From Thermoplasmatota archaeon (GTDB lineage Archaea; Thermoplasmatota; JAKEGO01), in assembly GCA_028279595.1 (NCBI GenBank), contig JANQNK010000004.1, positions 96,001 through 160,000 of the forward strand: 64,000 nt of DNA, read 5' to 3'. A model generated the notes under the pieces. The model was not told the DNA's origin, did not search any database, and saw nothing but the letters and a program-made list of their open reading frames with translations. Of this stretch, positions 12,599-50,694 are shown one piece after another. A program made the position numbers and the translations under genes. The stretch's first letter is position 1, and each line of letters opens with the position of its first letter.

Positions 12599-13288
12599 TC
12601 ATTCCTTGGGCTTCGCGACCTTCTTCGCCTTCTTGACCGGCTTCTTCGGTGTTTCCGCTGGAGTACCCGGCGAGACCGTCGCCTTCACGGTGGGGAAGTT
12701 GTCCCTCAGGTCTCCGAGGGCCTTCGATAGCTGGACCATCTGCTTCTCGGCCTCCTCGACCGCCTTCTTCGAGACGTCCTCACCGCTGTCCTTGAGCTCC
12801 TCCATCCTCTGGGCAAGGTCGGTGGATAGCTCGTTGACCTTCTCTATGACCCCGTCGATTATCGCGTTCCTCTTCTCGGGGTCAGCCTCGTTCTGGGCCT
12901 CCTTGAGCCCCGTGACCATCATACCCTGGATGGTCTGGAGGTCCTCGCTGATCTCCTCCAGGACTATCTCCGAGTTCTTCTTCACCGCAACCTGAAGCTC
13001 CTTCGCCCTCTGTTCGACGACGCCGGTCAGGTTCTCTATATCGCTCCTCAGCGTCTCAAGGAACTTCTCCAGCTGCTCGATGGAGGCGTCGGGGTTCTCG
13101 GCCGCGTCCTTGAGGCTGTCGATGTGGGAGTCGATGGTCTTCAGGGCCTTCTCCGATGTCTCGGCCGCCGCATCCACAAGAGTCGCTCCCTCCTTCTTGA
13201 TCTCGTCGACAAGGGTCTTCTGCCTCTCGTCGATCGTCTCGATGGCCTTCTTCATCGTTCCCGATATCTCACTAAATATGTCCGCCAT
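12599..13288 (-). CDS. All-helical apolipoprotein-like/coiled-coil protein with Lys/Pro/Ala tail
   Basis: GGTGA RBS before ATG 13288 (MADIFSEI); amphipathic helical periodicity; C-terminus ETPKKPVKKAKKVAKPKE. Confidence 0.65.
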   Translation of the reverse strand: MADIFSEISGTMKKAIETIDERQKTLVDEIKKEGATLVDAAAETSEKALKTIDSHIDSLKDAAENPDASIEQLEKFLETLRSDIENLTGVVEQRAKELQVAVKKNSEIVLEEISEDLQTIQGMMVTGLKEAQNEADPEKRNAIIDGVIEKVNELSTDLAQRMEELKDSGEDVSKKAVEEAEKQMVQLSKALGDLRDNFPTVKATVSPGTPAETPKKPVKKAKKVAKPKE

Positions 13289-13453
13289 GGCGATCACCCA
13301 CGTCTTTCTAGTGTGATTGATATCCTGAATCCGATATAAATATTTACCTTGAAAGGGGGCAAAATCGGCCGATCGGTCCAAAACTGTTACCATTGATCGA
13401 TGGGCCCGCACCAAGGGTCAAGACTTATTTACATTCCGTAAGATGGAGGGAGG

Positions 13454-14188
13454 ATGTCAGAGCTCGCGCTGGTGATTGCGGCCCTCTTCGCCTACGGGGT
13501 GTTCAGGGGAACCAGCACCTGTGCCACTATATGCACCCCTGCCCTCCTACCCTACGTCGCCTCAAGCGGTATGGGTCCGGCTAGAGCGTTGAAGATGGGT
13601 ATAATGTTCAACCTTCCAAGGCTGGTCATGCTGGTCATATTCGGTGCTATCGTGGGTGCCCTATCCAGCTCTGTGTTCTCGGAGAGTGGGCTCAAGTTGG
13701 TATTGACTGTCACTCACGATATGGCATACATGGCCATAGGGATCCTGCTAATCTTCCTGGGAGTACACATCCTCAGGAAGGGAGGAAGTGAAAGGACGCC
13801 CGGATCCAGACATCGGAAAAGGAGAGGGAGACCGAACCTTTTCCCCAGATGGATCCGTGGAGAGAGGAGGTTTGTGACGACATGGGGGTCCCTTCTCAGT
13901 GTCGCCTGCCTGATGGAGGTCGGGCTATTGGAAGGACTTGCCATGTCCACGCTCCTTGGAGCTTCCGAGTCGAATGTCGTCATCGCGGCGATGTTGGGGG
14001 CTGGTGCAATGGCAGCCTTCGGGATAGGGGCAGCGGTCCCGGTCATCACCCTTGTGGTTCTGACGTCGAAATATGCAGATATGGAGAGACCGTCCCATAC
14101 CCGCTTCTTCACCGAGATCGTACCATGGTTAATGGTCCTGGTCGGCATCTTCCTGATCGGAACCTCGGCCTTGAGATTGAGCCTCTGA
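13454..14188 (+). CDS. DsbD_2 / TauE-like multi-pass membrane protein (CcdA/DsbD-beta-like)
   Basis: About six TM helices; Cys-Pro motif in the first half (TSTCATICTP) and a Cys in the second half (SVACLME); GGAGG RBS. Confidence 0.6.
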   Translation: MSELALVIAALFAYGVFRGTSTCATICTPALLPYVASSGMGPARALKMGIMFNLPRLVMLVIFGAIVGALSSSVFSESGLKLVLTVTHDMAYMAIGILLIFLGVHILRKGGSERTPGSRHRKRRGRPNLFPRWIRGERRFVTTWGSLLSVACLMEVGLLEGLAMSTLLGASESNVVIAAMLGAGAMAAFGIGAAVPVITLVVLTSKYADMERPSHTRFFTEIVPWLMVLVGIFLIGTSALRLSL

Positions 14189-14256
14189 TCCAGTTGTCTC
14201 GACCAGTGCTGGAAGAATGCATAATCCTCATATATCCATGTGGCATTTGGATTATC

Positions 14257-16614
14257 ATGTTAAGGGCCAGACTACAGAGGGGGCAGGCTCTCGTTCTCGC
14301 TATCTCGATTTCTTTGCTCTTGAACCAATATGGAGCACTTGCAGATGGTGGGACCGACCAAAGCGATGTCAGAGGGTATCCGGACATACTGACCGTCGAG
14401 GTGAATGCTCTTGCCCCGGAGGCACCCGCTGTGGTTGGGTTCCAGCCGACGGAGGAGTCCTATCTTTCGGCAGCGTGCATGATACCGGCCTACTACAATA
14501 GAATTGACTCAATACCGCTGATATTCGACGACGGATCGGGTGAAAACGCCGTCCCTGAGGATTTCGAGGCCGTGACGATAGAGTTGGGGAGCGGTGGAAC
14601 GGACATCTGGACCATGGACTTCGCATACGACCATTGGAGCGAAGCGGGGGTCGTCGTCCTTGTCGAGGATTACGAGTGGGCGCTCCGATCCGTGCCGATC
14701 TCTGCCCAGCTGTGCGCGCCGATGGTCACAGCTGTGACCCCTGCGTTCGCAACGAACCTCTCGGTCGAACTCGTTATAATGGCCGGCGATGGACTGTCTG
14801 AACAACAGGTCCCAGCGGGTACCAAGGCGATCCGCTTGACTAGCGCCGAGGACCTCTGGACGTTCCAGCTGGACGTATACTCCATGATGGGGAGGGCGTG
14901 CGACTACGTGGTCGTAACGAATCCCACCGACATCGACCCGGCCGTGGACATCCAGCTTCATGGTCTATCCCTGTCCGCCGGACTCCTTGCCGCATACAGG
15001 GGTGCGGTCGTTCAGACGGGAGACCTCACGGGGCCCAGGGACCTGATATCCACGATCATAAAAGCGGAGGAGCCGGATGACGTGACCTACGACCAGGTCG
15101 TCCCCTACTTCCACGCAGTGAAGGAATCCTGCTGGGGAGCCCAGGAGTTCATGATCGACAGGGACCTGACGCCGGCCTTCCTCGGGCTTGTGGGAGGCCC
15201 ATTCGCCCTTCCGGATTACATCCTCGACATCCACATCCTCTACCATTACTGGGCAAAGGAGTTGCATTACGTACCAACGACTGCGCCCTATGGCAATTTC
15301 TCTTCGGAGAAGCCCGTTGACACCTACGTCAAGGAGGACGCAGCGGTCGGGCGGATACTCGGTGACAACATCCTCGATACGTCGTTACTGCTTTTCCGTA
15401 CCTTCTTCTACAGGGAGTTCCTGCCCGGTGGTGAATACGACCCTGGGACCGCGTGGAGTAGCTCCAGCATCATGATCGACGGACACCGCCTGAACCAGCC
15501 AGAGCCCGGCGGTCCTAACATTTCGGCGAACGTCGTGTGGCACCCTGGTGAGGAGGTGATGGAGGAGTTCGACGCCGCCGGCTTTGACGTAACCTACGGG
15601 TTGCCAAAGAACGAGACGGACCCAACGGATACGAACCTCTCGGTAGTGTCGCTCATGGGGATCCTCGTGAACTCCTCAGTGAGCCACATAATCGCCCACG
15701 GACATACCGAAATGATACGATTCGAGGTTGGGATCGATCCCGATACCGGCGATGGGCGCATCTTCGCGCTGACCTGCGACCAGATAAGGGACCTTGGGCC
15801 GACAGCCCCCTTCGCTATAGGCGCGATCGCTTGTGGATCCGGCACCTTCTCTAAGGACGTCCCGTTGAACAGGACAGTTCCGCTATCTTTCGTGCATGCG
15901 GGGGCTGTCGCATTCCACGCACCGGCCACCGGTCAAGCGGTGTGCTTCTGGGACCAAGCTCCCGAGGGTGTCGCTTCGGACATGTCCTACATGATGTGGA
16001 ACTACAGCCTGAACGACAATATTGCGATCGGAAGGGCAATAGCGGATGCCAAATGGGATGCATTCAGCTCGTGGCGCGATGCGGGAAACATATCCCATGA
16101 GGACCCGGCCACGTTCCACCTGTTCGGGGACCCGGCCCTCGAGCTATACAAACCCGGAGTCCCGTTCAGCGATCCAGCACCGATGGAGGTGGAGGTCGAG
16201 TTGGATATCGATCCAAGCTCTATTGCCGCAGGAGATGCGGTAGTGATGAACTTCACCTTCTCCGATCCGGCAACAGGACTACCGATCATGATCGATTGGG
16301 ACAGGATCGAGGTAGGGAACGAGGTATTCGATGGTGCATATGCGGAACCCACATCCAACGCTTCACACAGCTTCACGCTGAACGAGGAGGGATTGAACTG
16401 GATCAAGATATCCTTCGGTGCGGATGGTTATGACACCTACGAAGCGACCTACCTGTTCAACGTTGAAGGGACCGGTAGTGGTCCTGAGGATGAAGATGAT
16501 GAGGACTATCCGATAGCAGCGCTCATGGTGGTCGTTCTCGGTATCGTGCTAATCGTATTGGTATACGTGTATCTGCTCAAGGCCTCACGGGGGAGAAAAG
16601 GGAAGGGGAGATGA
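14257..16614 (+). CDS. Membrane-anchored C25 (gingipain/clan CD)-like cysteine peptidase
   Basis: Signal peptide; VGRI, IIAHGH (catalytic His), AIACGSG (catalytic Cys), IAIGRAIADAK, FHLFGDP; C-terminal TM plus basic tail. ATG 14257 preferred over 13849. Confidence 0.7.
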   Translation: MLRARLQRGQALVLAISISLLLNQYGALADGGTDQSDVRGYPDILTVEVNALAPEAPAVVGFQPTEESYLSAACMIPAYYNRIDSIPLIFDDGSGENAVPEDFEAVTIELGSGGTDIWTMDFAYDHWSEAGVVVLVEDYEWALRSVPISAQLCAPMVTAVTPAFATNLSVELVIMAGDGLSEQQVPAGTKAIRLTSAEDLWTFQLDVYSMMGRACDYVVVTNPTDIDPAVDIQLHGLSLSAGLLAAYRGAVVQTGDLTGPRDLISTIIKAEEPDDVTYDQVVPYFHAVKESCWGAQEFMIDRDLTPAFLGLVGGPFALPDYILDIHILYHYWAKELHYVPTTAPYGNFSSEKPVDTYVKEDAAVGRILGDNILDTSLLLFRTFFYREFLPGGEYDPGTAWSSSSIMIDGHRLNQPEPGGPNISANVVWHPGEEVMEEFDAAGFDVTYGLPKNETDPTDTNLSVVSLMGILVNSSVSHIIAHGHTEMIRFEVGIDPDTGDGRIFALTCDQIRDLGPTAPFAIGAIACGSGTFSKDVPLNRTVPLSFVHAGAVAFHAPATGQAVCFWDQAPEGVASDMSYMMWNYSLNDNIAIGRAIADAKWDAFSSWRDAGNISHEDPATFHLFGDPALELYKPGVPFSDPAPMEVEVELDIDPSSIAAGDAVVMNFTFSDPATGLPIMIDWDRIEVGNEVFDGAYAEPTSNASHSFTLNEEGLNWIKISFGADGYDTYEATYLFNVEGTGSGPEDEDDEDYPIAALMVVVLGIVLIVLVYVYLLKASRGRKGKGR

Positions 16615-16621
16615 ACAGGGA

Positions 16622-18799
16622 ATGCCCATCGGACCATCCGGCAACGAGGGATCCGCATCAATGGTGCCACATCGTGTCATCGTATTGGTACTCTTCCCTG
16701 TCCTGTGGCTGCTGGTGACATCGGCCCTGGCCGGGGGTGAGGACCTCAAGTTGGGTGGCGAGGAGGCCCTCACGATCGAGGACCCGCAGGTGTTCGGCAA
16801 CGTTACGCTGACCGGGCACTCCACGCTCATCATCAACGGGACCTCCATGGAGATACGAGGATTGCTCAGGATGAATGACAACTCCCGACTGTTCGTCCAA
16901 GACGGAGTGATGGTGGTGAGACCGCCCGCCCTGGACGAGCACATCATGCCTGTATTCATCCGGGACAGGTCGCTTTTAAAGGCGAGTTCGGGGTCTGACG
17001 TGGTGTTCCATCCTCAGCCGAGCGCCACGAACATCTCGTACATGCTTGCCGACGATTCGTCGAGCTTCATCCTGGTCGATTCCGACTTCTCCTTCGAGTC
17101 GCCGGAGATCATCGACCAGTCTATCGAGCTGGCATCCGTCACGTCGGGTGTCCTGCTATTCTCCAGCTCGAGCTCCTGGACCGTGATCGACTCCGAGATC
17201 GAAGCGTACCTCAACGTCACACCCTCCGGACAACTGAGGAGCAGATGGTTCTGGTGCACTCTTCACCAGAACGCGAAGGTAGAGCTCATAGACTCAGAGG
17301 CATGGATCAACACTCCCCTGAACACCATCTTCAAGCCTATATCCGGAATGTTCCAGATGACTAGGTCTGTGATCTCACAGGGTTATCTCGACGGCGAGGT
17401 CACGGCGACGTTCGCCATTGAGGACAGCGAGGTGGACGGCCTCAACCTGAGGGACCAGTCCCAGATGGTGCTCGCGTCATCGACCGTGCAGACGCTTACG
17501 ATCGGGATCATAGCCCCGTACACCGACGTTGATGAGATGCCTCGCACCAAGGCGACGATCGGGGATGTTGTCGTGAAGGGGAGGACCAGCGTGAAGGGTG
17601 CTGCGACGGTCGATATCTCGGGATCGGTGCTCGATTCCCTCTTCGTTTCAGAGGAGGCGGAGGTTGAACTGTTCGATTCCATCGTCTCTGACACCCTCAC
17701 ATGCGTTGACGTCACCAGTGTCCTGGGTGACAACTGCAGCGTTACGAACCTGACGGTGGATGACGACTGCTGGCTCCACCTCGACAAGTTCGGTTCGGCC
17801 ACGAGGATGGTGATGCGGGAGGGGGGTCCGTCGACCGCTTCACTGTCCAACGGGACCATAGATGAGATCTCGGTGTACCAGGACCATACGAAGACGATAG
17901 TCCTCCGTAGCGTAGACGTCGGGAACATCAGTTTCTGGGACAACGTCACGATGTCGATCGTCGCGGATGATTCCTCGATCCAGGCTTTCCGTCCTTGGCG
18001 TCAGGAGAACATCCACATAACCATGTCGGTGTCGGACTCCGAGGTCCCTCCCGCCGATTTCGATGAGAACATATCGGTCGACGTCTATCACCCTCTCAAG
18101 GTATTGGTCCGAGTGAACGGCATGGCGACCCCGGCTGACCTGAGGGTGTTGGAGGAGTCGGGGGTGGAGACCGTTCATGTGATCCCAGATGGCATCGGGT
18201 GCGTTTGGTTCGACGTGCTGGTCGACACGTACTCGGAGGGCGTACTGACCCATTACAGGAATGTCACGGTCGAGGCGACGTTCCTCGATTTCGAGGGACG
18301 GAAGGAGGAGGTCATGGACTCCTCGAAGACCGTCCGGTTCGATTGGTCCGACCCGTACTCCCCATCGGTCAAAGGGATCTCCCATTCACCGTCATCATGG
18401 AACTCCGACAGGGACCTGTTCGTCACTGCGGATGTGACGGATGCGGATTGCGGAGCCATACGATCGGTTACCCTTAACTACAGCGTCGATGGCTCGCCGT
18501 GGGTCGAGGTCCCGATGTACGAGACCAGTCCAGGGACCTACAAGGCGATGATACCGCGGCAGAGTGCCGGATCCACAGTACGCTACCGGGTCAGAGCCTC
18601 TGACGTGTATGGTAACTACGTAGTCTCGGACACGAGATCCCTGGTGGTGGGGGAGGAGGAGGACCTGTTGACCATGTCCCTCTTCGCCCTCATGGTTGTG
18701 ATGGCGTTGGCGCTTCTCGGCCGGCATGTTCTCAGATACCGAAGGACACGGAGATTCCTTAGGGGCGGAGGACCCAAACCCAAGGGGGTCAGGAAATGA
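16622..18799 (+). CDS. Secreted, C-terminally anchored beta-rich surface protein
   Basis: Signal-like N-terminus, beta-helix-like repeats, Ig-like domain (VTLNYSVDGSPW...YKAMIP...VRYRVRASDVYGN), C-terminal TM plus Arg-rich tail. Confidence 0.65.
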   Translation: MPIGPSGNEGSASMVPHRVIVLVLFPVLWLLVTSALAGGEDLKLGGEEALTIEDPQVFGNVTLTGHSTLIINGTSMEIRGLLRMNDNSRLFVQDGVMVVRPPALDEHIMPVFIRDRSLLKASSGSDVVFHPQPSATNISYMLADDSSSFILVDSDFSFESPEIIDQSIELASVTSGVLLFSSSSSWTVIDSEIEAYLNVTPSGQLRSRWFWCTLHQNAKVELIDSEAWINTPLNTIFKPISGMFQMTRSVISQGYLDGEVTATFAIEDSEVDGLNLRDQSQMVLASSTVQTLTIGIIAPYTDVDEMPRTKATIGDVVVKGRTSVKGAATVDISGSVLDSLFVSEEAEVELFDSIVSDTLTCVDVTSVLGDNCSVTNLTVDDDCWLHLDKFGSATRMVMREGGPSTASLSNGTIDEISVYQDHTKTIVLRSVDVGNISFWDNVTMSIVADDSSIQAFRPWRQENIHITMSVSDSEVPPADFDENISVDVYHPLKVLVRVNGMATPADLRVLEESGVETVHVIPDGIGCVWFDVLVDTYSEGVLTHYRNVTVEATFLDFEGRKEEVMDSSKTVRFDWSDPYSPSVKGISHSPSSWNSDRDLFVTADVTDADCGAIRSVTLNYSVDGSPWVEVPMYETSPGTYKAMIPRQSAGSTVRYRVRASDVYGNYVVSDTRSLVVGEEEDLLTMSLFALMVVMALALLGRHVLRYRRTRRFLRGGGPKPKGVRK

Positions 18800-19884
18800 T
18801 CGGTGAGACAGGGAACAGGTTGCGATGTCTCATCGGAATTGCGTTCATCGCCTCGATAACCTTGATCCTGATGGTGGGGATGCCGTCGGCAAGCGCAGGC
18901 GGGGAGGACGCGAACCTCCATTCGGTACAAATATCAGCGACGCCTTCGACCCAGGGTGTAGGCGGTATCGTTACGGTCAGAGCCGTGGCACAGCTGTACG
19001 GTGGGTGCTGTTACAATCTTTATGCTGACGACCTTACTGCCGAGCTTACGCTGCCCGACGGCGTCATCCTGCTTGGTGGACCGTCGCCTGAGAGGTACGC
19101 CAGCGTCACGGCCCAACCAGGAGGCGTAGCGACCGAACGGGTCTTCGAGTGGACGGTACGTAGCAAAGCGGTCGGTGTCTACGACCTTGATGTGGTCGTA
19201 AGAAGCCGAAACTGCGGAAACGTGAAGGACAATGTCACGCTGGAATACGTCGAAGGTGCAGCGATATCCGAGCCAGCCTTATTCCCAGACCCTCCCGATA
19301 TGAGGATGGACCTCTTCGTGTCGGTGAACGTTTCCATTGCAATTCGGGATGTCACCGTGGTAAGCGTGAGCGTTTACACGGTCGAGGGAGCAAGAGAGTT
19401 CGTCAAGGCGGAGAACGAAACTCTGATCCTGGAAGGCAACCGGTCCGTGGCCGGCACGTTCACGGTACTGACCGAACACGAATATCAGAAGGGCATATGG
19501 TGGACCAGGCTCGAGCCACCTGACTCTGAGAGGATCGTGCTATGGGTGGTCGTAGTGGGTTCGGATGGGAAGAACACGACGTCTCCAGTATACTCATTGA
19601 GGGCGATCGATCGCGACCGCGATTACCAGGAGTTGAGGGGTCTTTACATGGCCAGCACCTTCATACCTCTCCTGGGCGCGATCGCCGTGATCTATGTCAA
19701 CAACAGATTACTCGCCAAGCGCTTGGAGCCCATCCTCATACGCAGGGGGCGGGCCTCCGAAATAATGGCCATGAGGGCAATGGTCTTCTATGCGGTCCTG
19801 ACCATCGGGGTGATCATGGTGCTCTACGCCCTCTCGGCCGGATGGTTCCAGGAGACCGGCGGCCTCCTCCAGGAGGGGATCTGA
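18796..19884 (+). CDS. Membrane protein with Ig-like ectodomain carrying a GGCC motif
   Basis: Signal/TM at N-terminus, LYGGCCYNL and SRNCG, two C-terminal TM helices; overlaps both neighbours. Confidence 0.6.
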   Translation: MIGETGNRLRCLIGIAFIASITLILMVGMPSASAGGEDANLHSVQISATPSTQGVGGIVTVRAVAQLYGGCCYNLYADDLTAELTLPDGVILLGGPSPERYASVTAQPGGVATERVFEWTVRSKAVGVYDLDVVVRSRNCGNVKDNVTLEYVEGAAISEPALFPDPPDMRMDLFVSVNVSIAIRDVTVVSVSVYTVEGAREFVKAENETLILEGNRSVAGTFTVLTEHEYQKGIWWTRLEPPDSERIVLWVVVVGSDGKNTTSPVYSLRAIDRDRDYQELRGLYMASTFIPLLGAIAVIYVNNRLLAKRLEPILIRRGRASEIMAMRAMVFYAVLTIGVIMVLYALSAGWFQETGGLLQEGI

Positions 19885-20882
19885 TGAGACCGCGGCTCTC
19901 GACGATCATCAGGACGCCCGCACAGCTCGTTTTATTGCTGATCCTTAACTTCACCTTCTGGGGATCGATCTTCATCTCAGGGTTCCTTCCGATATTAAGG
20001 GTACCGAAGATATTCCCAGGGATGGTCGGAGAGGGGGTGCCGCTATGTACCCTCGGCTCCATCGGCCGGTCCCTCACGGCGTGGTGGCCTCTGGCGATCA
20101 TCCTTGTATTCATCGGTATACTGATCCTGATAGGTGTTCTGGTCGGCAGGGGATTGTGCGGTTGGGCGTGCCCCATCGGATTCCTCCAGGACCTCTTCAG
20201 CCATGCGAAGGCTGCAGTGGGGATCCCTCCGAAGGAACCGCCGACCGGAGTGCACAGGAACCTCATCGCACTCAAGTTCGCGATCCTCGTACTCCTCGTA
20301 CTCCTCTCGATATCCATTGGTGCTTCATACCTCGCGAGTGGTGTGGCCGGGACGACGTTCCGTGGGGAGCAGCCTGGCATGGTCCAGACATCACCTGCGT
20401 GCTCCTATTGCATCACACCGTCGATCCGTGCTGTCTACGATATCTTCGCATTCAACAGATGGTCGCCCAATGACCCGATCTTCTTACTTCAGGCCTCGGT
20501 CGTCGGGATCTTCTTCGCCTTCGCAATGGTAACGCCAAGGGCATGGTGCAGATATCTCTGCCCAGTGGGGGCGTTGAGCTCTTTGTTCAACGGGTTCTCG
20601 ATGCTTCACCTCAGCAAGGAACAGGACAAGTGCACCAGAAATTGTTACGTCTGTTATGACGTTTGTCCGACACGATGTAACAAGGTGAGGGACGAGGCCA
20701 CCGAAGAGAGGGTGAGCGACACGAGTTGCATATTCTGTATGAAATGCGTGGATGCATGTCCTGAGGACTGCCTTCACATCAAGTTCGGTTCGAGAACACT
20801 TTACAGTGGTGGGAAGAGATGGAAGGAAACATCCAGACCAAAGGGTACACGAGGACGGTCGAGGACCAGGTCCAAAAGATGA
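19884..20882 (+). CDS. NapH/MauN-family membrane 4Fe-4S polyferredoxin
   Basis: GRGLCGWACPIG and RAWCRYLCPVG membrane CxxxCP motifs; C-terminal CTRNCYVCYDVCP and CIFCMKCVDACP. ATG 19884 overlaps the previous TGA. Confidence 0.85.
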   Translation: MRPRLSTIIRTPAQLVLLLILNFTFWGSIFISGFLPILRVPKIFPGMVGEGVPLCTLGSIGRSLTAWWPLAIILVFIGILILIGVLVGRGLCGWACPIGFLQDLFSHAKAAVGIPPKEPPTGVHRNLIALKFAILVLLVLLSISIGASYLASGVAGTTFRGEQPGMVQTSPACSYCITPSIRAVYDIFAFNRWSPNDPIFLLQASVVGIFFAFAMVTPRAWCRYLCPVGALSSLFNGFSMLHLSKEQDKCTRNCYVCYDVCPTRCNKVRDEATEERVSDTSCIFCMKCVDACPEDCLHIKFGSRTLYSGGKRWKETSRPKGTRGRSRTRSKR

Positions 20883-22021
20883 GATCGCGGGAAGCACCGC
20901 GAGGCATGTCGCCATTCTATACGGCAGCGAAGCACATGTTGAGGACTCCCGATGGCCCCTCGGTGGGATACATGTGCGAGTTCGTCCCGGTCGAACTGAT
21001 CGTCGCCGTCGGTGCCACGCCCTACAGGATGTGTACAGGCCTTCAGGAGACAACCTTCAGCGCGGAGGAGTACCTCCCGCAGACCTTCTGTCCCCTGATC
21101 AAGTCCACGATGGGAGCGTACGGAGAGAAGCCGCCCTTCGACCTCGTGGTGATCCCCGCGACCTGTGATGGGAGGAAACACCTTGGAGAGCTGTACTCCG
21201 ACGACGTCAACGTCCATATGATGGACGTCCCGATCACAGGCGAGACCGTCCATGCCAGGATGCTGTGGATGAAGGAGGTGCAGCGGCTCCGGAAGGCGCT
21301 GCAGTCCACGTTCGATAAGAAGATAACTGCAAAGGGATTGAAGAGGGCTATATTGGAGGAGAACGGGCGTCGCGAACTGATGGCCCAGCTCCTCGAGCAG
21401 CGGAAGGGTGACCTCACACTCAGCGGATCGGACCTCATGCTCGTGGCTTTGATGTCCAGGTACATGGATGTGGACAGATGGTCGAAGGCGGTCAATGTGC
21501 TGATAGCCTCAGGCAGTAAAAGGAAGACTCGGAAGGAGGGCCGAACGGACCGATCCGGTCCAAGGATCTTGCTGACGGGAGCCCCGGTAATTCTACCGAA
21601 CTGGAAGATCCCGCTCCTCATCGAGGAATCGGGAGGTGCGCTTGTCCTCGACAGCCTGTGCTCCGGTACCCGCACCATGTGGCAGACGGCGGAGCCGTCA
21701 GGATGGAGCATCCAGGAGATGATGATCGCCATGGCGGACAGACAGATGATGAGCCTGTGCCCCTGCCAGATCCCCTTCGATGCCGCCTGGGCCCGTATCC
21801 GAACGGTAATAGAGGACTTCCAGATCGACGGAATCATCCACCATGTGCTTCAATCATGTCACCCCTTCGGAGTCGAGGCGACCCTAATGAGACGGAGGAT
21901 GGAGGAGCTGGACGTCCCGCTCCTTTCGCTGGAGACGGACTACAGCCAGGAGGATGTCGAACAGCTACGGACCAGGATCGAGGCGTTCATCGAGATGCTC
22001 GAGGGGCGAAGTAACAGGTAG
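20879..22021 (+). CDS. 2-hydroxyacyl-CoA dehydratase-family Fe-S protein, double-cubane cluster protein (DCCP)-like
   Basis: GYMCEFVPVEL, RMC, TFCPLIKS, ATCDGRK, RILLTG, SLCSGTR, CPC, QSCHP, LETDYS...EQLRTRIEAFIEML; ATGA overlap with the NapH-like gene. Confidence 0.8.
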   Translation: MRSREAPRGMSPFYTAAKHMLRTPDGPSVGYMCEFVPVELIVAVGATPYRMCTGLQETTFSAEEYLPQTFCPLIKSTMGAYGEKPPFDLVVIPATCDGRKHLGELYSDDVNVHMMDVPITGETVHARMLWMKEVQRLRKALQSTFDKKITAKGLKRAILEENGRRELMAQLLEQRKGDLTLSGSDLMLVALMSRYMDVDRWSKAVNVLIASGSKRKTRKEGRTDRSGPRILLTGAPVILPNWKIPLLIEESGGALVLDSLCSGTRTMWQTAEPSGWSIQEMMIAMADRQMMSLCPCQIPFDAAWARIRTVIEDFQIDGIIHHVLQSCHPFGVEATLMRRRMEELDVPLLSLETDYSQEDVEQLRTRIEAFIEMLEGRSNR

Positions 22022-22080
22022 TCGATTCAGATAGTGGAGATCGGGTGGCCTTGGGATCCAAAACCAATAATTTAACAACG

Positions 22081-22090
22081 TTTAAATAAA
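22081..22090 (+). promoter_or_regulatory. Probable TATA box for the FN3 gene
   Basis: TTTAAATAAA in an AT-rich intergenic stretch about 45-50 bp upstream of ATG 22134 (GAGGTGA RBS). Confidence 0.45.
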
Positions 22091-22133
22091 GACGGTCTGA
22101 TGTGAAGACAGAATAGACTCTAGAGGTGATCTA

Positions 22134-25100
22134 ATGAGGAGGACCGTTATTGGATTAGCGTTAATATCACTGGCAATGTTGATGATCATAATGCTGGCTG
22201 GAGAGGCAAACGCCTGCTTCAGCTGGGATGTCACCTGCAACGACAGGTCGAACAACGTCGACCGGGACGATTATACGATCTACACCATCCAGGTGGATAT
22301 GTCTCCGGGCTGCAGGAACCAGTACTGGCTGTACTTCGATTTCGATGGGATCCCGTCGGGGTGGGACGCGATGATCCTGGACCAGACGGGGCACGAGATC
22401 CCGGTCAGAACGGAGTTCCATCTCTCGGGGACCGTGACCTACTACTTCAGTGCAGCGGTGTTCGCCCCGCCGGATGGGGGGAATGGCGAGACCGCTTACG
22501 TTACCGTCCTCATCACTGCGGACGACAGGTACAATCAGAACGACACGGAGGAGGTCGAGACCTCCTCAGTCTGCAACGGGGTGGTAAGCCACTCCCCGTC
22601 TGACACCACCCTGGTGGTTACGAACACCACCACGAGCACCGTATCCCTTTCATGGGACCAGGTTGCAGATACGGATTTCAGAAGGTACGAGATTCATCAG
22701 AGCAATGCCACGGATTTCATCCCCGTCATGACCACGAATATCCATGAGATCACCTCCAGAAGCACCACCACGTACGTGGTGGAGGGCCTCTCCGCGGGAT
22801 CGTCCTATTACTTCCGGGTCCGGGTGGTGGACAATGAAGGAAGCTCGACCGGAGGTCCATATTTCACTGACTCGAACGAAGGGAACGGGACCACTACCGG
22901 CGTGAACTACCCTCCATTGCGAGTGAATATCACACAGTCATGGGACACGGAGAACAACAACACGATGCTCGAGTGGGAGGTGAGCGAGGAGGAGGACTTC
23001 AGGATGTACAGGTTCTTCTCCCACCACGAGTCGGGATACAAACCCGGGGCGTCCTTTATGGTACTTGACCTGTACGAGAAGGCGATCGACTCGGCCAGGA
23101 TCTCGGGGCTCTGGGAGAACAAGACCAATTACATAATCCTCCGGGTGGTCGACCAGGGAGGTATGTACAACGACTCCGAGGAGTTCAGTGTATTGACCGA
23201 GGACTGGCTGCCCGAACGAAGCAGGATAACCGAAATATCCGAAGTGACGGACGAGGAATGCCACCTGAACTGGACATCGGCTGGCATAAACGATTTCGAC
23301 AGATACGAACTACACCTGTCGACCGAGTCCGGCTATACGCCGGATGGCGGGACCCTGACCGTTACAGAAAAGGACCAGAGGTACAACTTCACGGACGTCG
23401 AGGACCTCGAGTACTATACGACATACTATGCGATGGTCAGGACCTACGATAAGGGCGGCAACTACGCCGATTCACCGGAGGAGTTCGAGTTCAGGACGGA
23501 GGCGGACGGTGAGGCGCCCGATCCCGTCACTATAAACGTCCCCGGGGAAGGGAACGTGACCGATGATGAGATCCGGATCGACTGGACCGAGAGCACGAGC
23601 AACGATTACCAGAACTACACGGTGTTCCGCGGGAACATCTCCGGCTTCGATCCCGATGACGACTCGGTGATCGTGCTGCACACCAGCGACCGGAAGGAAC
23701 TTGACGTGCTGGACGAGGACCTCGAGGACTACACCAACTACTATTACATCGTGAGAGTGCACGACGTGGAGGACCTGGTTTCCGACTCGGACGAAATGGA
23801 AGTCATGACGCAGCACGACGGCGAGGAGCCAGAGGCCGTGGTCCTGGAGGACCCGGAGGACGAGGACATCACCAGCGATTCGGTGGACCTCAACTGGAGC
23901 CGCTGCACTAGCAACGACTTCCTCTCCTACGAGGTGTACTACTCCACCGAGAAGAACTTTGACATAGAGACGGAAGGGACCATGGAGCGGAACATAACCT
24001 CCCGCTATGTCGGTACGGAGACGGTGAGCGATCTCCTGTCGGAGACCAAATACTACTTCAAGGTGCGTACTTGGGACAACGAGGGGATGTATGCCGACTC
24101 GAACGAGGTCAATGCGGAGACTGAGGAACCACCGCCGGACGAGCAGCCTCCCGAACCGGTGGTCCTGGAGACCCCGACCGAAGAGGACATCGACTACAAA
24201 TCCGTCAAGTTGAACTGGTCCAAGAACGACAATTCGGACTTCGATCGATACGAGGTCCATATGTCGACCGAATCTGGATTCGACCCTGACTCTGGAACCC
24301 TGGAGAAGACGATCACGGATAGGACCGACACAAACGTGAAGGTCTCGGGCCTCGACGCCGAGACGGAGTACTTCTTCGTGGTGAGGACGTGGGACAACGA
24401 GGAACCCGCCCATTACGCGGACTCCAATCAGAAGAGGGCGGTGACCGAAGAGGTGCCCGAGTCGGAGAGGGACCCGGATGGCGTTACAATCCAGAACCCC
24501 TTCACACCGGACATCGAGGGCAACAGCATCGTTGTACGATGGACGGAGAACGAGAACGGGGACTTCGATCTCTATGAGGTCCATATGAGCGAGTACCCCG
24601 GATTCACACCTGAATCGAGCACGAAGGTGGGAGAGATCGATGAACAGGAGACCACATCGTACACAGTGACCGGGCTCGTGGAGTCGACCGATTACCACTT
24701 CATCGTTCGGGTGATCGATACCCAGGAGAGGAGCGCTGACTCGCCCGAAGTGATGATCACTACTTTGAACAATCCCCCTTCCGCTGTAACGATCAACCTG
24801 GCTTCGTCGATCACCAAGGTCTCATTCGACATCAGATGGACCGAGTGCGAGGATGTGGACTTCGAGCGTTACGAGGTTCATGTCTCCACCTACTCCGGAT
24901 TCAATCCAGGAGACTCGACGCACTACGATGACATCACCCGAAGCGGGACCACTGTCCTGGTGGTCGTCGACCTGGAGCCCGATACGGAATATTATGTGGT
25001 GATCGTGGTCGTCGATTCCGAGGGTGCCGAGACAGAATCGAACGAATACTCCGTGATGACCCAGCGGGCCAGCGGGAGCGGTGGCGGCGGTGGTGACACT

Positions 25101-25175
25101 CCTGGGTTCGAGTTGGTCGTGGTCTCGACAGCGATGATCGTCGCCGGATTGATGGTGAGACGCCGAAGGCCTTAA
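22134..25175 (+). CDS. Surface protein with 8 fibronectin type III repeats and a PGF-CTERM sorting signal
   Basis: Signal peptide; eight copies of W....D.DF.RYE.H.S...G..P...L...T.YY..VR..D; C-terminal DTPGF + TM + RRRRP. Confidence 0.85.
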   Translation: MRRTVIGLALISLAMLMIIMLAGEANACFSWDVTCNDRSNNVDRDDYTIYTIQVDMSPGCRNQYWLYFDFDGIPSGWDAMILDQTGHEIPVRTEFHLSGTVTYYFSAAVFAPPDGGNGETAYVTVLITADDRYNQNDTEEVETSSVCNGVVSHSPSDTTLVVTNTTTSTVSLSWDQVADTDFRRYEIHQSNATDFIPVMTTNIHEITSRSTTTYVVEGLSAGSSYYFRVRVVDNEGSSTGGPYFTDSNEGNGTTTGVNYPPLRVNITQSWDTENNNTMLEWEVSEEEDFRMYRFFSHHESGYKPGASFMVLDLYEKAIDSARISGLWENKTNYIILRVVDQGGMYNDSEEFSVLTEDWLPERSRITEISEVTDEECHLNWTSAGINDFDRYELHLSTESGYTPDGGTLTVTEKDQRYNFTDVEDLEYYTTYYAMVRTYDKGGNYADSPEEFEFRTEADGEAPDPVTINVPGEGNVTDDEIRIDWTESTSNDYQNYTVFRGNISGFDPDDDSVIVLHTSDRKELDVLDEDLEDYTNYYYIVRVHDVEDLVSDSDEMEVMTQHDGEEPEAVVLEDPEDEDITSDSVDLNWSRCTSNDFLSYEVYYSTEKNFDIETEGTMERNITSRYVGTETVSDLLSETKYYFKVRTWDNEGMYADSNEVNAETEEPPPDEQPPEPVVLETPTEEDIDYKSVKLNWSKNDNSDFDRYEVHMSTESGFDPDSGTLEKTITDRTDTNVKVSGLDAETEYFFVVRTWDNEEPAHYADSNQKRAVTEEVPESERDPDGVTIQNPFTPDIEGNSIVVRWTENENGDFDLYEVHMSEYPGFTPESSTKVGEIDEQETTSYTVTGLVESTDYHFIVRVIDTQERSADSPEVMITTLNNPPSAVTINLASSITKVSFDIRWTECEDVDFERYEVHVSTYSGFNPGDSTHYDDITRSGTTVLVVVDLEPDTEYYVVIVVVDSEGAETESNEYSVMTQRASGSGGGGGDTPGFELVVVSTAMIVAGLMVRRRRP

Positions 25176-25235
25176 ACCTGCAGATGGACTGTCGGGTATC
25201 ACTGACACGACAACAGCAAAACGGTTGGGACGTCA

Positions 25236-26006
25236 ATGACAATGATGACAGCGGGAGTGGACGCAGGAACGACATCGATCAAGGCAACGCTTCTGGTGGA
25301 CGGAGAGATGAGACATGCCGTGGCGGATTCACCGCTGGACCCGAACCGTACAGCATCAAGGCTCCTCATGGGGTTGCTCGATGATGGGGTCAAGATGAAG
25401 GACCTGGACAGCATCATTGCCACGGGACAGTCGCGGAGGAGCATTAAATTCGCCAAGAAGACCGTCACCGAGGTCTCGGCACTGGCCAAAGGGACTGCCA
25501 TTGTCCGCCCGAGTGCTGGAACTGTCATCGACATCGGTGCTCAGGGCGTCCGGGTGGTACACATCGGACCGGGTGGTGAGGTCAAGGATTTCGCACTGAA
25601 CACTAAATGTTCGGCGGGGACCGGGTCCTTCCTCGAGGTCACCGCAGAGATAGTCGGGGTCCCGACATCTCAACTCGATGAACTTGCTGCTGATGCGAGG
25701 GATCGATCGCCAATTAACGCAATGTGTACCGTCTTTGCCGAGTCGGAGGTGGTTAGCCTTGTAGCCCGCGGGGTCGAGAGATCGGATATCGTCGCCGGAC
25801 TCCACCAGGCGATGGTTCGGAACCTGATGACCACCGTGAGACAGAAGGGTACCGTTGGAGAGGTCCTGCTTTGCGGCGGCGTCGTCATGAACACGGACGT
25901 CGTGAAGGTCATCGGAGAGGAGATGGGCAGTGGGGTATCAATGACGGTGGCAGAGGAGCCTCTATTCATCGGATCTCTCGGCGCCGCCGCCCTTGGGGGT
26001 CGATAG
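25236..26006 (+). CDS. ATP-dependent acyl-CoA dehydratase activase (HgdC/BadFG, ASKHA), paralog 1
   Basis: GVDAGTTSIK, IDIGAQG, NTKCSAGTGSFLE, MCTVFAESE, LCGGV. Confidence 0.85.
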   Translation: MTMMTAGVDAGTTSIKATLLVDGEMRHAVADSPLDPNRTASRLLMGLLDDGVKMKDLDSIIATGQSRRSIKFAKKTVTEVSALAKGTAIVRPSAGTVIDIGAQGVRVVHIGPGGEVKDFALNTKCSAGTGSFLEVTAEIVGVPTSQLDELAADARDRSPINAMCTVFAESEVVSLVARGVERSDIVAGLHQAMVRNLMTTVRQKGTVGEVLLCGGVVMNTDVVKVIGEEMGSGVSMTVAEEPLFIGSLGAAALGGR

Positions 26007-26007
26007 G

Positions 26008-26805
26008 ATGGCGCTCTATTCAGCTGGGATCGACATCGGCTCCACGTACACCAAATGTGCCATCACGGACGGGGAGAACATTCTAGGTCATTCAACTCTC
26101 CAGACAGGTGCAGGTGCACAGAAGGCAGCGGACACGGCGATGTCGGAGGCATTGGCCATGGCTGGTCTCGACCGAGAGCAGATCGGTGCGGTTCTCACCA
26201 CTGGATACGGCCGGAGGATCATCAAGGAAGCCGATAGCAACATATCGGAGATCTCGGCCAACGCGAGGGGTGCAGCCTGGTTCGGAAAGGAGCTCGGCAC
26301 GATCGGGACCATCATAGACATCGGTGGCCAGGACACGAAGGTGATCGCACTCAAAGAGGATGGTGCGGTGCGTGATTTTCTGATGAACGATAAATGTGCT
26401 GCCGGTACGGGACGGTTCCTTGAGGTTATCGCCAGATCGCTGGGCGCAACCATCGACGATCTCGGCGAGATGTCCCTGAGGGCTAAGGGGGGGATCGACA
26501 TAAGCGCCACCTGTACCGTCTTCGCAAGGTCGGAAGTGGCCTCTATGCTCTCCAAGGGGATCGAACCCGAAGAGATCGCCCACGCCTTGCACCGGGCCAT
26601 AGCCAAGCGGTCCGGGGTCATGGCTAGGAAGGTCGGTCTCCGGGAGCAGGTGTTCTTCGACGGTGGACCTGCGCGGAACATCGGCATGAGGAAAGCCCTC
26701 GAGTCTGAGCTTGGTATGAAGCTGGTCTCGCCCGACAAGCCTCAGATCGTCACGGCCATCGGGGCGTCGCTCCTGGCGAGAGAGAGGAAGGAAGGTGGGC
26801 AATAG
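26008..26805 (+). CDS. ATP-dependent acyl-CoA dehydratase activase (HgdC/BadFG, ASKHA), paralog 2
   Basis: GIDIGSTYTK, TTGYGR, IDIGGQDTK, MNDKCAAGTGRFLE, TCTVFARSE. Confidence 0.9.
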   Translation: MALYSAGIDIGSTYTKCAITDGENILGHSTLQTGAGAQKAADTAMSEALAMAGLDREQIGAVLTTGYGRRIIKEADSNISEISANARGAAWFGKELGTIGTIIDIGGQDTKVIALKEDGAVRDFLMNDKCAAGTGRFLEVIARSLGATIDDLGEMSLRAKGGIDISATCTVFARSEVASMLSKGIEPEEIAHALHRAIAKRSGVMARKVGLREQVFFDGGPARNIGMRKALESELGMKLVSPDKPQIVTAIGASLLARERKEGGQ

Positions 26806-26910: not shown

Positions 26911-26937
26911 GGGGTTGGATATTCGGATATGTCTAGT

Positions 26938-31733: not shown

Positions 31734-31939
31734 ACGACAAATGTTACCAACCCTTCAGTGGATACTTTCCTTTTCAAGGCACTATAGTTTTGTAATGTAA
31801 ATGTAGTGTTACGATTGATAATCCTTAAAAACCGCTGAAATGTGCGGAAAACCTGCGCAAAACCGCATATTTTCGCCGGAAACCCTTACCAAAATCAATA
31901 TATAGATTGCCAGATTTCGTTTCTGGACTAGGTGATGCA

Positions 31940-34900
31940 ATGACCAAACACATCGCAGTCGGAATTATAGCAGTTGTATCGCTAGCGATGCTCGTGTTCT
32001 GTACCCCAGTCTCCGCTGACTTCGGGGACGATATCCTCTTCGCGGAGATCGGAGGGGAGACCGGACCGGACATGATCGTCGCCGATGCGGAGGCAGGGAC
32101 CGGAGGAGAGGTATACATCCTCCTGGACCCTGACGAGGGTAATTTGACAGTGTCGGACGCCGACATCACATTGACTGGTGCGGCCGGCAGCATGTTCGGG
32201 TCCGGGGTCTCGTTCACCGACATGAACGACGACAACGTGACGGACCTGATAGTGGGAGCTCCGATGGCCGACAACGGGAACGGAACGGTCTATCTCTTCC
32301 TAGGACCTATAGCCAACGGCTCCTACCAGAATGCGAATATTACTCTTGACGCGCCCGAGGACACGCTGGGATTCGGTGCATCGGTCCAGGCCTCCGAGAT
32401 CAACGGGGATACGAGGCCCGACATCGCGATAGCGAGCATCTACCAGCCCGGTGGGAACGGTCTCGTGGGATCGTACTACGATGACATCGACCTGTCCGAA
32501 CTGATGTACGTCCAGGTCGACGACGATATCGATTTCAACTGGGGACTTGGCGCGCCGACGAACCTTAGCGCTGACACCTTCTCGATACGCTGGACCGGTC
32601 TCTTGTACTGCGAGGAGACCGGCGAGCACACCTTCTGGGTGGACGCCGACGATGCTATCCGCGTCTACATCGACGGCGACATGGTCATCGATGCGTGGGG
32701 TGGAGCGCCGAATGCATCGGAAGGTGTGTACCTCCTAGAGGGATATCACGACATCAAGGTCGAGTACGCCGATGATACGCTCGACGCGTACGTGAACCTC
32801 AATTGGACGACGGCATATTCTAGTGGTCCCGTCCCGACCGCGAACCTGGTCCCGTCCTTGTCCAGTCCGTTGTTCATAGTCAACGGAAAGACGAACCTCT
32901 CGAACCTGGAGGTCTCGGACATCCTCGTCGGAGAGGTGATGGGTAGCACATTCGGCAGCGAGATGATCGATTCCGACGAGGGATTGGTGGTGGGCTCCTG
33001 GTCGACCGGCCACGTCTTCATCCATGACGCGGACACGGCCGGAGACACCGAGACCTACTATGCCTATCCACAGTACAAGGGATCAGGGGATGAGACTGGT
33101 GAACCCGTCAGTGATCTGTGGGGCGATGACAATAACTATTACGAGGTCGAGAGAGGGAACAGCGAGGACGATCTGGAAATAGATACGTTCTACATCTACC
33201 AGCTACCGGCAATAGCCCGTCAATACGGGGAGATAGCTGGCGTCAACCTTTTGGTAAGGTGGTCCACCGACCAGTACTACATCTGGCAGGGCAACGGGGA
33301 TATGAACTATGTCCAGTTCGCGATAGAGGGGGATGCATATGAGGACCTCGTTCAGCCGACAAGGACCACAACTGAGGCCACGATCACTGGCAACCTCTAC
33401 AACAAGGGAGTAGATACGTACGGTGAGATCGAGGACCTCAACATACATTTCAACAATGGAGATGTCGGAAGCAGCGCGGATTCGGTCTACTTCGAGTTCA
33501 TCCTGGTGGAGATCGAGGTCTCTCTACCCGTGATGGACGAGTATGTGGACGGACCGGCCTCCTTCGGTATGTCCCTCGCCTCGTATGGCGATGACCTGTA
33601 CGTAGGGGCGCCCTATGCTGGTCCGATGACCAACGATCACGAGCTCGTGGGGATGTCCGGCGGAGGAAGCGCGTACTCCTTCGACATGACATCGTTGCCC
33701 GATGCTGCGGCGGAGGCGGGGGGCATCCTCTTCGGGACGCCCGGGTCCGAGTTCGGAAGCTCGTTGGCCACCGCCGACGGCATGTTGGCCATCGGCGCAC
33801 CTGAAGCATTCCTAGCCGACGACACCGGGGCCGTGTTCCTCGCCGAGGACATGGACCTCTCCGGATCCGGCCTTTGCCCGTACGGATCGGGCAACGCGGG
33901 GACAGTGGTCGCGATGAACGGCACATTGCTCGCCGCGGGAAATCCGGAGACCGACACCATCCATCTCATAGACATCACCGACGCCCCGACCATGGAGGTC
34001 GACAGGTCCGACTCGGTCCATGTGCCGACATCCGAGCAGTACACCATTGACATCAGCTCGACGGGCGTTCTCGCCATCACATCATATACGATCCCTGCCT
34101 GGGACTCCGATTTCAACGGAACTGACTGGATCAGGATGAGCGCCGGGGACCTCGACATGGATGTCGATATCAACACGGCGCCCGGACACGATACACCGGT
34201 AAGCATAGTCGGCAGGAGCCTTGACGGCCTGACATGCGGGCTCGACGTCATCTGGTTCAGGACGATGGAGGACAGCTTCTCCGTCGACGACCTTCACATC
34301 GTACGGGCGGACGGCAAGGCCTTCGCCTCGCCAGAGGGCGGCGTGGCCGGCGAGGTCAGCACGGTGAGGCCGTTCGTAAGGTACAGTGGGCCTGGTACGA
34401 CCGCTACAGACGTGGAGATCTCCACGGGAGGTTCCTACCTGAACCGGACAGTGCCACTGCCGTCGGACCTCATGGTCCTGGGCGACAACCTAACGGTCTC
34501 GAGCTACGGGACGGAGGCCTGGAGGGCCACCGACCAGATGGGCAGCTCGTACACGACAATCTCATTGACCGAGAGCCACTACTCCTGGAGGGTGATCGTC
34601 AACGGTTCATACCTACTCCAGAGGAGCGGATCGGTCGGCCTAAGGTTCTACACGCCGGTCGCGCTCACCTTCGATCAGGTCTCCATCGCGAGGGCGAGCG
34701 GGGATGATAGGAACATCTTCGACGAGACCCTCACGGAGGTCTCCTTCGGCGGGATGCCGTACTACCGTGCGGCAGCCGGAGAGGTCTTCGTATCGGATTG
34801 GACCGATTTCTCGATCGATCCGGACGGCATCTACGCCGTCTCCTTCCACACCCAGACTAACAGCACCAACGAGTTGACGTACTTCTACGGGTCTGGCATC

Positions 34901-50519: not shown

Positions 50520-50694
50520 CCGATGCCGATCCAATTCGTCGTATGACGATTTGTTAACACAAACTGCGTAAATATTATGATTATATGCAGAAAAATTAAC
50601 TTTTAAGTCGAAATAAAAATCATTACAGTAGTAAGTAAGGTATTAATACAACGTCCATCGCTTTCTCTGAATAGGACACGTGCAGGTGAACAGC

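Follow-up and report, generated by a model that had tools for sequence, protein, structure and literature searches.

In Thermoplasmatota, a double-cubane cluster protein and a predicted two-subunit activase share a conserved gene set with a NapH-like membrane protein and with exported partners

[quoted passage not shown] The question is raised by a stretch of 64,000 nucleotides from the genome of a Thermoplasmatota archaeon (GCA_028279595.1, contig JANQNK010000004.1, positions 96,001 to 160,000 of the forward strand), which is called the window in the following. As the original prediction had claimed, nine co-oriented genes (g1 to g9) fill positions 13454-26805 of the window; all nine open reading frames (ORFs) are present on the + strand, and the proposed overlaps of stop and start codons are indeed found at the junctions g3/g4 (ATGA, 18796-18799), g4/g5 (TGATG, 19882-19886), and g5/g6 (ATGA, 20879-20882). 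According to reviews, the physiological substrate of double-cubane proteins is unknown (PMC7317905). Comparison with other genomes and metagenome contigs showed that a conserved gene set joins the DCCP (g6) and a predicted two-subunit activase (g8, g9) to a NapH-like membrane protein (g5) and predicted exported partners.

The identity of g6 (20879..22021, +) is the first step. Its closest relatives of known structure are 7YYL (E 3e-63) and 6ENO (5e-63), with BzdN (6e-27) and HadC (2e-19) behind them. All seven cysteines of its motif, C33-X18-C52-X18-C71-X24-C96-X164-C261-X32-C294-X32-C327, align with cysteines of 6ENO, and the spacers are slightly shorter than in the published motif C-X19-C-X18-19-C-X29-C-X166-170-C-X32-34-C-X32-C (PMC7317905). 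The protein scores 301 bits with the HGD-D model, and the HadC, bzdN, BcrC, and benz_CoA_red models remain far below their cut-offs. The search with the double-cubane model (NCBIfam NF040772) gave a divided answer: it is the best family by far, with 317.5 bits compared to 98 bits for bzdN as the next one, but this score is under the curated cut-off of 350. The full cysteine motif and the grouping with DCCPs, not with dehydratase subunits, confirm the assignment that had been made from the sequence. By homology, g6 probably carries an [8Fe-9S] cluster, and g8 and g9 probably reduce it in an ATP-dependent manner.

The DCCP and its reductase DCCP-R from C. hydrogenoformans (CHY_0487/0488; 6ENO, 7YYL; PMC7317905, PMC9351452) offer the nearest comparison, and they likewise comprise one HGD-D-family subunit with seven cysteines and ASKHA-type activase neighbours. 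However, three differences are apparent. First, the alignment of g6 begins at residue 30, compared to residue 73 of 6ENO, and the open frame permits at most 418 amino acids. This later start, by about 43 residues, indicates that g6 is devoid of the four helices with which 6ENO closes its CoA-type funnel, as is the case for YjiM. Therefore, g6 does not have the channel-closing N-terminal extension of the C. hydrogenoformans type (class I) and resembles the YjiM-like short form. Second, DCCP-R is a homodimer, in contrast to the two different activases encoded here. Third, genes of the window type occur in linkage with genes for exported proteins and for a membrane protein that is NapH-like.

Both g8 (25236..26006, +) and g9 (26008..26805, +) match the activase domain TIGR00241 (176 and 250 bits, cut-off 125), and both have kept the cluster-bridging cysteines (Cys125/164 in g8, Cys130/169 in g9). 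They are one base apart, as the TAG of g8 ends at 26006 and the ATG of g9 starts at 26008, and they lie 3.2 kb downstream of g6, after g7; in relatives they are directly adjacent to the DCCP gene. The activases of archaeal relatives (n=26) sort into two orthologous types, A and B. Type B, to which the canonical HgdC-like g9 belongs, has the canonical phosphate-2 motif D-I-G-G-Q-D-[TS]-K (D-I-G-G-Q-D-T-K in g9). In type A, represented by g8, this motif is altered in all orthologues, with Gly for Asp and Arg for Lys; it reads G-G-Q-G-[IV]-R in most of them and D-I-G-A-Q-G-V-R in g8. The existence of two distinct types argues for an asymmetric arrangement such as the one in the class I benzoyl-CoA reductase ATPase module, and by this analogy g8 and g9 likely form a heterodimer. 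Three further HGD-D genes are present in the genome on another contig, and because each has its own activase or activases, g8 and g9 appear to be dedicated to g6. On contig C4 the genome has a separate BzdNOPQ-like set of two HGD-D subunits and two activases (G000:C4:195166-199183; loci L002, L004, L173, L175) and a further HGD-D/activase pair near C4:215290-217484.

Is the neighbourhood of g6 conserved? Homologues of g4, the gene upstream of the NapH-like gene, were found in 18 of the 401 genomes sampled from the phylum, and in 13 of these 18 genomes the g4 protein carries a vicinal Cys-Cys (CC) motif. The NapH-like gene directly follows g4 in all 13, and a g3-like gene directly precedes it in 10. 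In 10 genomes the same locus includes the double-cubane gene, and in 7 it includes both activase genes. In two genomes (G093, G189) a double-cubane gene with 44% identity lies on a different contig. In the sister genome G002 the gene order is distributed over two short contigs that both break within g3; a 5-kb contig carries g1-g2-g3, and the second contig carries g3-g4-g5-g6-g7. Next to the system, the g7 N-terminal domain is found again in G002, in G173, and on the metagenome contig L181. The surface genes g2, g3, g4, and the g7 N-domain are therefore conserved next to NapH or DCCP genes in other genomes, as the original prediction had required.

Gene fusions are a second type of evidence. 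A g3-like beta-helix ectodomain with its own anchor is joined to NapH via a fifth helix in G005, in G016, and on at least 10 metagenome contigs. A fusion of DCCP and activase A is encoded on the metagenome contigs L195 (854-3442) and L196 (3389-5920); its linker is rich in Gly, Pro, and Ala and collagen-like, and the N-terminus of the open frame is rich in Pro and Gln. Furthermore, maximum-likelihood trees of DCCP and of NapH exhibit the same split into type 1, which includes the window cluster, and type 2. The type-1 DCCP clade has an SH-aLRT support of 91, and the sampled classic double-cubane proteins form a separate clade with a support of 100. Taken together, the gene fusions and the matching trees point to one machine. 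Two controls were negative or nearly so: a DCCP or activase gene was present in none of 80 other NapH-family loci from named genomes, and a NapH-like gene was present in 3 of 63 more distant metagenome DCCP loci, most of which have one adjacent activase.

The type-2 clusters (G029, G038, G019, G012) come from the same phylum and share the core of NapH, DCCP, and two activases as well as the presence of exported partners. However, they form separate clades, and four beta-propellers and an FtsX-like permease replace g3, g4, and the C25-like peptidase, so that type 2 has no CC protein. The gene order (L029 = G029:C11, L032 = G012:C8) is FtsX-like permease, PQQ/BamB-like, WD40, and FG-GAP propellers, NapH, DCCP, and two activases. 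Some type-1 loci also have additional genes: in L058, L060, L061, L062, and L054 a Kelch beta-propeller gene of about 390 codons lies on the opposite strand just past the NapH 3' end, and in several loci a protein of 760-950 amino acids with Ig repeats is encoded directly upstream of activase A.

These results bear on the explanation by an ordinary enzyme, namely that g6, g8, and g9 make up a dehydratase or reductase of CoA esters, with the surface genes as chance neighbours. The genome is indeed crowded with giant surface-protein genes, and YjiM, which like g6 is devoid of the channel-closing extension, has been considered to act possibly on a CoA ester (PMC7317905). However, chance is at variance with the conserved order, the stop/start overlaps, the two kinds of fusion, the congruent trees, and the two negative controls. 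In addition, dehydratases and benzoyl-CoA reductases have two catalytic subunits and genes for CoA pathways nearby. As had been noted before, neither is the case here, since g6 is the single HGD-D gene in the window, and neither a CoA-transferase nor an acyl-CoA dehydrogenase is found among the flanking genes scanned by Pfam. Class I benzoyl-CoA reductases (BcrABCD/BzdNOPQ; 8S02) likewise possess a two-subunit ATPase module around one bridging cluster, and an [8Fe-9S] cluster has been reported for them (PMC11971306); they differ in having two subunits in the catalytic module and a CoA ester as substrate. An ordinary enzyme of CoA-ester metabolism is thus already disfavoured and appears extremely unlikely. 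The sequence features of the cluster lend no support to its being read as a benzoyl-CoA reductase or dehydratase and taken as a sign of aromatic or amino-acid fermentation.

The constant partner of the CC protein is g5 (19884..20882, +), a NapH-like four-helix polyferredoxin of the conserved core. It contains the Pfam domain Fer4_5 (PF12801) twice, two CX3CP motifs, and a 2x[4Fe-4S] domain, and it is the sole Fer4_5 protein in the genome. With the NapH model TIGR02163 it scores 80.6 bits (cut-off 213), and its nearest named relative belongs to a metagenome-assembled genome (MAG) of an uncultured member of the Thermoplasmata. No Nap gene (NapG/NapA) was found among the 19 ORFs of the cluster and its flanks that were scanned, the rest of the genome not having been searched for Nap. 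The four helices, the two CX3CP motifs, and the C-terminal two-cluster ferredoxin domain are shared with the NapH/MauN family, but g5 has three extra invariant cysteines on predicted outer loops, and its partner is a DCCP. Hydropathy and charge predict a cytoplasmic N-terminus, two outer loops (34-69 and 146-198), and a C-terminal ferredoxin domain that is basic and cytoplasmic; this topology places the CX3CP motifs and the 2x[4Fe-4S] domain on the predicted cytoplasmic side. The type-1 NapH proteins have 15 invariant cysteines, four of which belong to the CX3CP motifs, eight to the ferredoxin domain, and three to the predicted outer loops. In g5 the latter are Cys55 and Cys173-x-x-Cys176, followed by Pro. 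Type-2 NapH proteins have 2+2 outer cysteines, two in loop 1 and a CxxC in loop 2. A widespread NapH-like subfamily of bacteria and archaea (many of the loci L070-L140, e.g. L075, L072, L086), with no DCCP nearby, has C-[YQH]-[AS]-C-P...C-P-[IV]-G as its loop-1 motif and C-x-x-C-P as its loop-2 motif. Cysteine motifs on both faces of the membrane may be a general, undescribed feature of a part of the NapH family.

The exported CC protein g4 (18796..19884, +) also belongs to the core and is translationally coupled to g3 and g5, and the synteny of these three genes extends across families. Neither g3 nor g4 has a Pfam match. The AlphaFold (AF2) model of g4 (pLDDT 82) consists of a signal or anchor helix, two Ig-like sandwiches, and two C-terminal helices that form a hairpin. 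In domain 1, the vicinal pair Cys71-Cys72 (G-G-C-C-Y) is located in the B-C hairpin and Cys139 (N-C-G) in the F-G hairpin, and in Ig/FN3 folds these two hairpins should share one tip. The family is small. A word-indexed protein search with g4 retrieved 3 proteins only, and therefore an exhaustive profile search of 1.84 billion proteins was needed, which resulted in 45 representatives at E <1e-30. The motif G-[GA]-C-C is kept in 34 of the 40 aligned members, and the third cysteine (N-C-G) alternates with Ser. Members with D-P-H instead of G-C-C form the family f20, and the NapH partner of f20 is devoid of all three outer cysteines. A search of two f20 genomes (G073, G079; 85-88% complete) revealed no double-cubane gene at E 1e-20. 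The f20 pair therefore looks like a derived membrane module with another use. In three f20 loci (L063, L065, L066) the Cys-less pairs of g4-like and NapH-like proteins are encoded beside surface proteins of 2300-2900 amino acids. No full-length relative of g4 was found with the profile in 251 genomes of a phylum that holds a Bathyarchaeota MAG, and the vicinal CC is not conserved in the NapH fusions with g3-like ectodomains.

A further core protein is g3 (16622..18799, +), which is predicted to be exported. Its AF2 model (pLDDT 84) contains a right-handed beta-helix, two Ig-like domains, and a C-terminal anchor helix, which is followed by a Lys/Arg tail. The C-terminal part is homologous to the ectodomain that is fused onto NapH in G005 and G016. 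In these two genomes, a Beta_helix/NosD-type anchored protein, which matches the NosD model with E 1e-11 to 4e-14, occupies the position of g3. An equivalence of g3 and these proteins was considered and dismissed, as they share no detectable sequence similarity, and g3 itself does not match the NosD model.

How might these proteins work together? We tentatively favour, as a real possibility, that g3, g4, g5, g6, g8, and g9 constitute one membrane-docked, ATP-driven reductase machine that passes electrons to an outer cysteine site. At the expense of ATP, the g8/g9 heterodimer would drive electrons of low potential into g6 and its [8Fe-9S] cluster, and g6, devoid of the channel-closing N-terminal helices, would dock on the ferredoxin domain of g5. 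The three outer cysteines of g5 and the vicinal pair of g4 would form an outward-facing site, and reducing equivalents would pass between the double cubane and this site, most likely outward. The outer site would then keep a thiol, a disulfide, or a metal-thiolate centre reduced for surface enzymes that the beta-helix protein would hold. The most recurrent candidate client would be the C25-like cysteine peptidase, and the DsbD-like membrane protein, where present, would be a parallel or alternative thiol conduit. A more specific version, in which the double cubane is a low-potential relay and not the catalytic site, so that electrons go via NapH to a composite extracytoplasmic site of NapH and CC protein, is doubtful.

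Several points speak against such a machine, and the first two are its chief weaknesses. Thiol reduction does not need an ATP-boosted low potential, and thioredoxin and DsbD suffice elsewhere. About 30 angstroms of membrane have to be crossed, and no bridging cofactor was identified. The topology of g5 is predicted from hydropathy, the positive-inside rule, and an analogy to E. coli NapH, and no solved structure spans its membrane part. Outer-loop cysteines are also present in 21 of 78 NapH-like proteins that are not linked to a DCCP, and one DCCP-linked type-2 NapH (L033, G016) has none. Conserved cysteines are missing from g3, and fold searches with Foldseek led to generic results only, i.e. 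beta-helix and Ig for g3 and Ig/FN3 for g4. The two contigs with the fusion of DCCP and activase A, L195 and L196, contain no NapH gene in the examined stretch. Lastly, at least five genomes (G098, G133, G197, G052, G189) have kept g3-g4-NapH, but no C25-like gene was found in the stretch examined; four of these five have the DCCP and both activases.

Electrons might also flow in the opposite direction. NapH proper is the quinol dehydrogenase of the periplasmic nitrate reductase and has its Fe-S centres on the cytoplasmic side. The NapH-like protein could supply the activases with electrons of the membrane pool, or with those of an external donor that enter via the outer cysteines. In the cytoplasm, the double cubane would then reduce a small molecule or a metal complex, which the surface proteins would have captured and handed over for uptake. 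Small molecules are reduced at the cluster of the C. hydrogenoformans DCCP (PMC7317905), and the type-2 archaeal loci begin with an FtsX-like permease, both of which would fit. However, a quinol is far too positive to reduce the activase cluster without extra energy, and neither the window cluster nor any of the examined type-1 loci encodes a transporter. Electron input combined with import would also leave the conserved CC of g4 and the peptidases without a role, and this explanation is rather unlikely.

Outward electron flow, as proposed for the favoured machine, is the principle of DsbD/CcdA, but DsbD is fed by thioredoxin and not by an ATP-driven Fe-S reductase. The window does encode a Cys-lined DsbD_2/CcdA-like membrane protein of 244 amino acids, g1 (13454..14188, +), whose first helix contains Cys23 and Cys27, while Cys161 belongs to a later helix. 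While g1 itself has no Pfam match, its homologues (28-31% identity) match DsbD_2 (PF13386) with 34-43 bits (cut-off 24.9) and also DsbD_TM (PF02683); relatives of g1 match NicO, too. Homologues were found in 44 of the 401 sampled genomes. The original prediction had included this gene in the module, and it is in fact adjacent in the window, in the sister genome G002, and on the distant metagenome contig L194; elsewhere it is on another contig, as in ten other genomes with a type-1 cluster, in which the scanned neighbours are housekeeping genes. Therefore, g1 is a lineage-specific neighbour outside the conserved core. In L194, which belongs to the type-1 clade, a DsbD_2-like gene immediately precedes the double-cubane gene, and a C25-like gene lies downstream of it. 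In G012 another Cys-lined membrane protein, with a weak match to DsbD_2 (E 0.008), precedes the type-2 NapH; it has no significant similarity to g1 and was rejected as its counterpart.

The many cysteines also suggest another use, the handling of soft metals or metalloids. The CC of g4, the outer Cys and CxxC of g5, and the Cys-lined g1 would bind a thiophilic metal, for which Cu, Ni/Co, Hg, As, or Se species are candidates, and the system would reduce or insert it as a low-potential analogue of CcoG or NosR/NosD. In NosR/NosD(FY), the accessory system of nitrous oxide reductase, a NapH-type membrane Fe-S protein occurs together with an extracytoplasmic beta-helix protein (NosD), as is the case here, and the cupric reductase CcoG (FixG) is a NapH-type protein that carries an extracytoplasmic Ig-like domain. 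The ESM Atlas leads for g4 were weak and of the CARDB and FixG_C types, with a score of 0.76 for the FixG_C Ig-like clusters. The NosD-model matches at the g3 position in G005 and G016 fit this use, as do a NosD-like beta-helix protein of 1280 amino acids downstream of the type-2 cluster of G029 (5e-41) and the NicO matches of g1 relatives. Moreover, a tight co-occurrence of DCCP and SelD in bacteria has been reported by Haft (bioRxiv 10.1101/2022.07.06.499078). However, SelD is absent above cut-off from the genome of the window, which is 86% complete, and no metal chaperone, P-type ATPase, or metalloenzyme is encoded in the cluster. The NosD model catches many generic beta-helix proteins, and g3 itself is not among its matches. 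There is also no NosZ, NosF, NosY, NosL, or cbb3 oxidase context here, so that the likeness to NosR/NosD and CcoG is architectural only. Metal handling is quite unlikely.

The candidate client of the favoured machine is encoded by g2 (14257..16614, +), a putative membrane-anchored, C25 (gingipain)-like cysteine peptidase of clan CD with H-G and A-C dyad motifs. It scores 23.1 bits with Peptidase_C25 (cut-off 23), and all five orthologues match the model, the best with 1.7e-14. The motifs I-A-H-G and I-A-C are kept in four of the five orthologues, and the copy of G165 is devoid of the His. Neither alone nor as a profile did g2 match any solved structure, including gingipain, by sequence. A C25-like gene is located directly upstream of g3 in G002, G173, G093, and G165, and C25-like genes are adjacent to the type-1 DCCP system in five genomes and on the metagenome contigs L194 and L196. 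Within the type-1 DCCP clade, at least four sub-branches show this adjacency, and another locus has a C11 peptidase gene. In L195/L196, a C25-like gene is followed by the genes for a short CC protein of one domain, DCCP::activase A, activase B, and an Ig protein, and then by a C11 clostripain-like gene in convergent orientation. With the type-1 clade, membrane proteins of the thiol type and cysteine peptidases of clan CD therefore recur in changing combinations. A surface cysteine protease had been proposed as one example of a protein that is activated; its adjacency is recurrent, but it is an accessory and not a constant partner, as exemplified by the C25-less genomes named above.

Could the activation of the C25-like catalytic cysteine even be the sole purpose of the system? 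The repeated adjacency of C25-like and C11 genes and the catalytic motifs in four of five orthologues would be in agreement with this view, and extracellular gingipain and clostripain genes are known from sediment Thermoplasmatota (PMC9585477). However, the five genomes named above have g3-g4-NapH without C25 in the examined stretch, the G165 copy has no catalytic His, and no ATP-boosted potential is needed for the reduction of a thiol. Activation of a protease alone is very unlikely.

The remaining gene, g7 (22134..25175, +), lies between g6 and the activases and is a recurrent accessory. It encodes a surface protein with a conserved N-domain, FN3 repeats, and a PGF-CTERM-like tail. Of the eight FN3 domains that had been claimed, six stretches match fn3 significantly, and "about eight" is based on the length. 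The claimed PGF-CTERM is represented by a terminal helix and a basic tail, but TIGR04126 scores 20.2 bits, below its cut-off of 24.5. The N-domain (22134-22600, residues 1-150) has two invariant cysteines, the first of which stands after the signal helix and within a lipobox-like context, A-x-[AG]-C. Therefore, g7 may be lipid-anchored at its N-terminus, in addition to its PGF-CTERM-like tail. Hydropathy and charge predict that the bulk of g2, g3, g4, and g7 is outside the cell. On L181 (4666-7563, - strand), a protein of 966 amino acids combines a g7-like N-domain with cadherin/Big_9 domains and C-terminal helix-turn-helix domains (HVO_0163-type, MarR); its gene is convergent to a pair of NapH fusion and DCCP, and it may be a membrane-spanning one-component regulator.

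The junctions without overlap differ in length. The spacers are 68 nt between g1 and g2, 7 nt between g2 and g3, 112 nt between g6 and g7, and 60 nt between g7 and g8. The g6-g7 spacer contains an AT-rich, TATA-like element, TTTAAATA (22081..22088, +), 46 nt upstream of the ATG of g7, which suggests that g7 may have its own, internal promoter. Upstream, the cluster is flanked by a divergent coiled-coil gene (12599-13414, - strand) and, beyond it, the gene for ThrRS. The downstream flank contains a tRNA-Val gene at 26937, and a PfkB kinase and a glycosyltransferase (GT2) are also among the products of the flanking genes. The Rfam scan revealed two tRNAs only and no riboswitch. Among the sequencing runs listed, the DNA occurs in a single one, a DNA run from a coral metagenome that may be its source, and in no RNA run. 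The window is crowded with very large ORFs at 31907-48583, 50680-56448, 56584-59190, and 3-3731 (- strand), which comprise 5558, 1922, 868, and more than 1243 codons, respectively, and probably encode giant surface proteins.

A full-text literature search did not retrieve any paper that joins double-cubane proteins and NapH. New here is the CC-protein/beta-helix/peptidase variant of the NapH/double-cubane cassette, together with the covariation of its cysteines. The natural function of double-cubane proteins has been an open question since 2018. Gene order, coupled translation, fusions, and matching trees tie one DCCP clade to a membrane Fe-S protein and exported Cys proteins, and the exported partners include gingipain-type peptidases, which are thought to drive protein breakdown by sediment archaea. 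If the double cubane were indeed a relay to an extracytoplasmic site, sediment and host-associated archaea would have a powered reductive surface, which would keep peptidases of the gingipain/clostripain type working or would reductively unfold disulfide-locked detrital proteins. A double-cubane enzyme would thereby receive its first physiological role, and the relay would be the first example of an electron export that is energised by ATP. The recurrence of the gene set in related archaea is a testable clue that the enzyme serves the chemistry of the cell surface.

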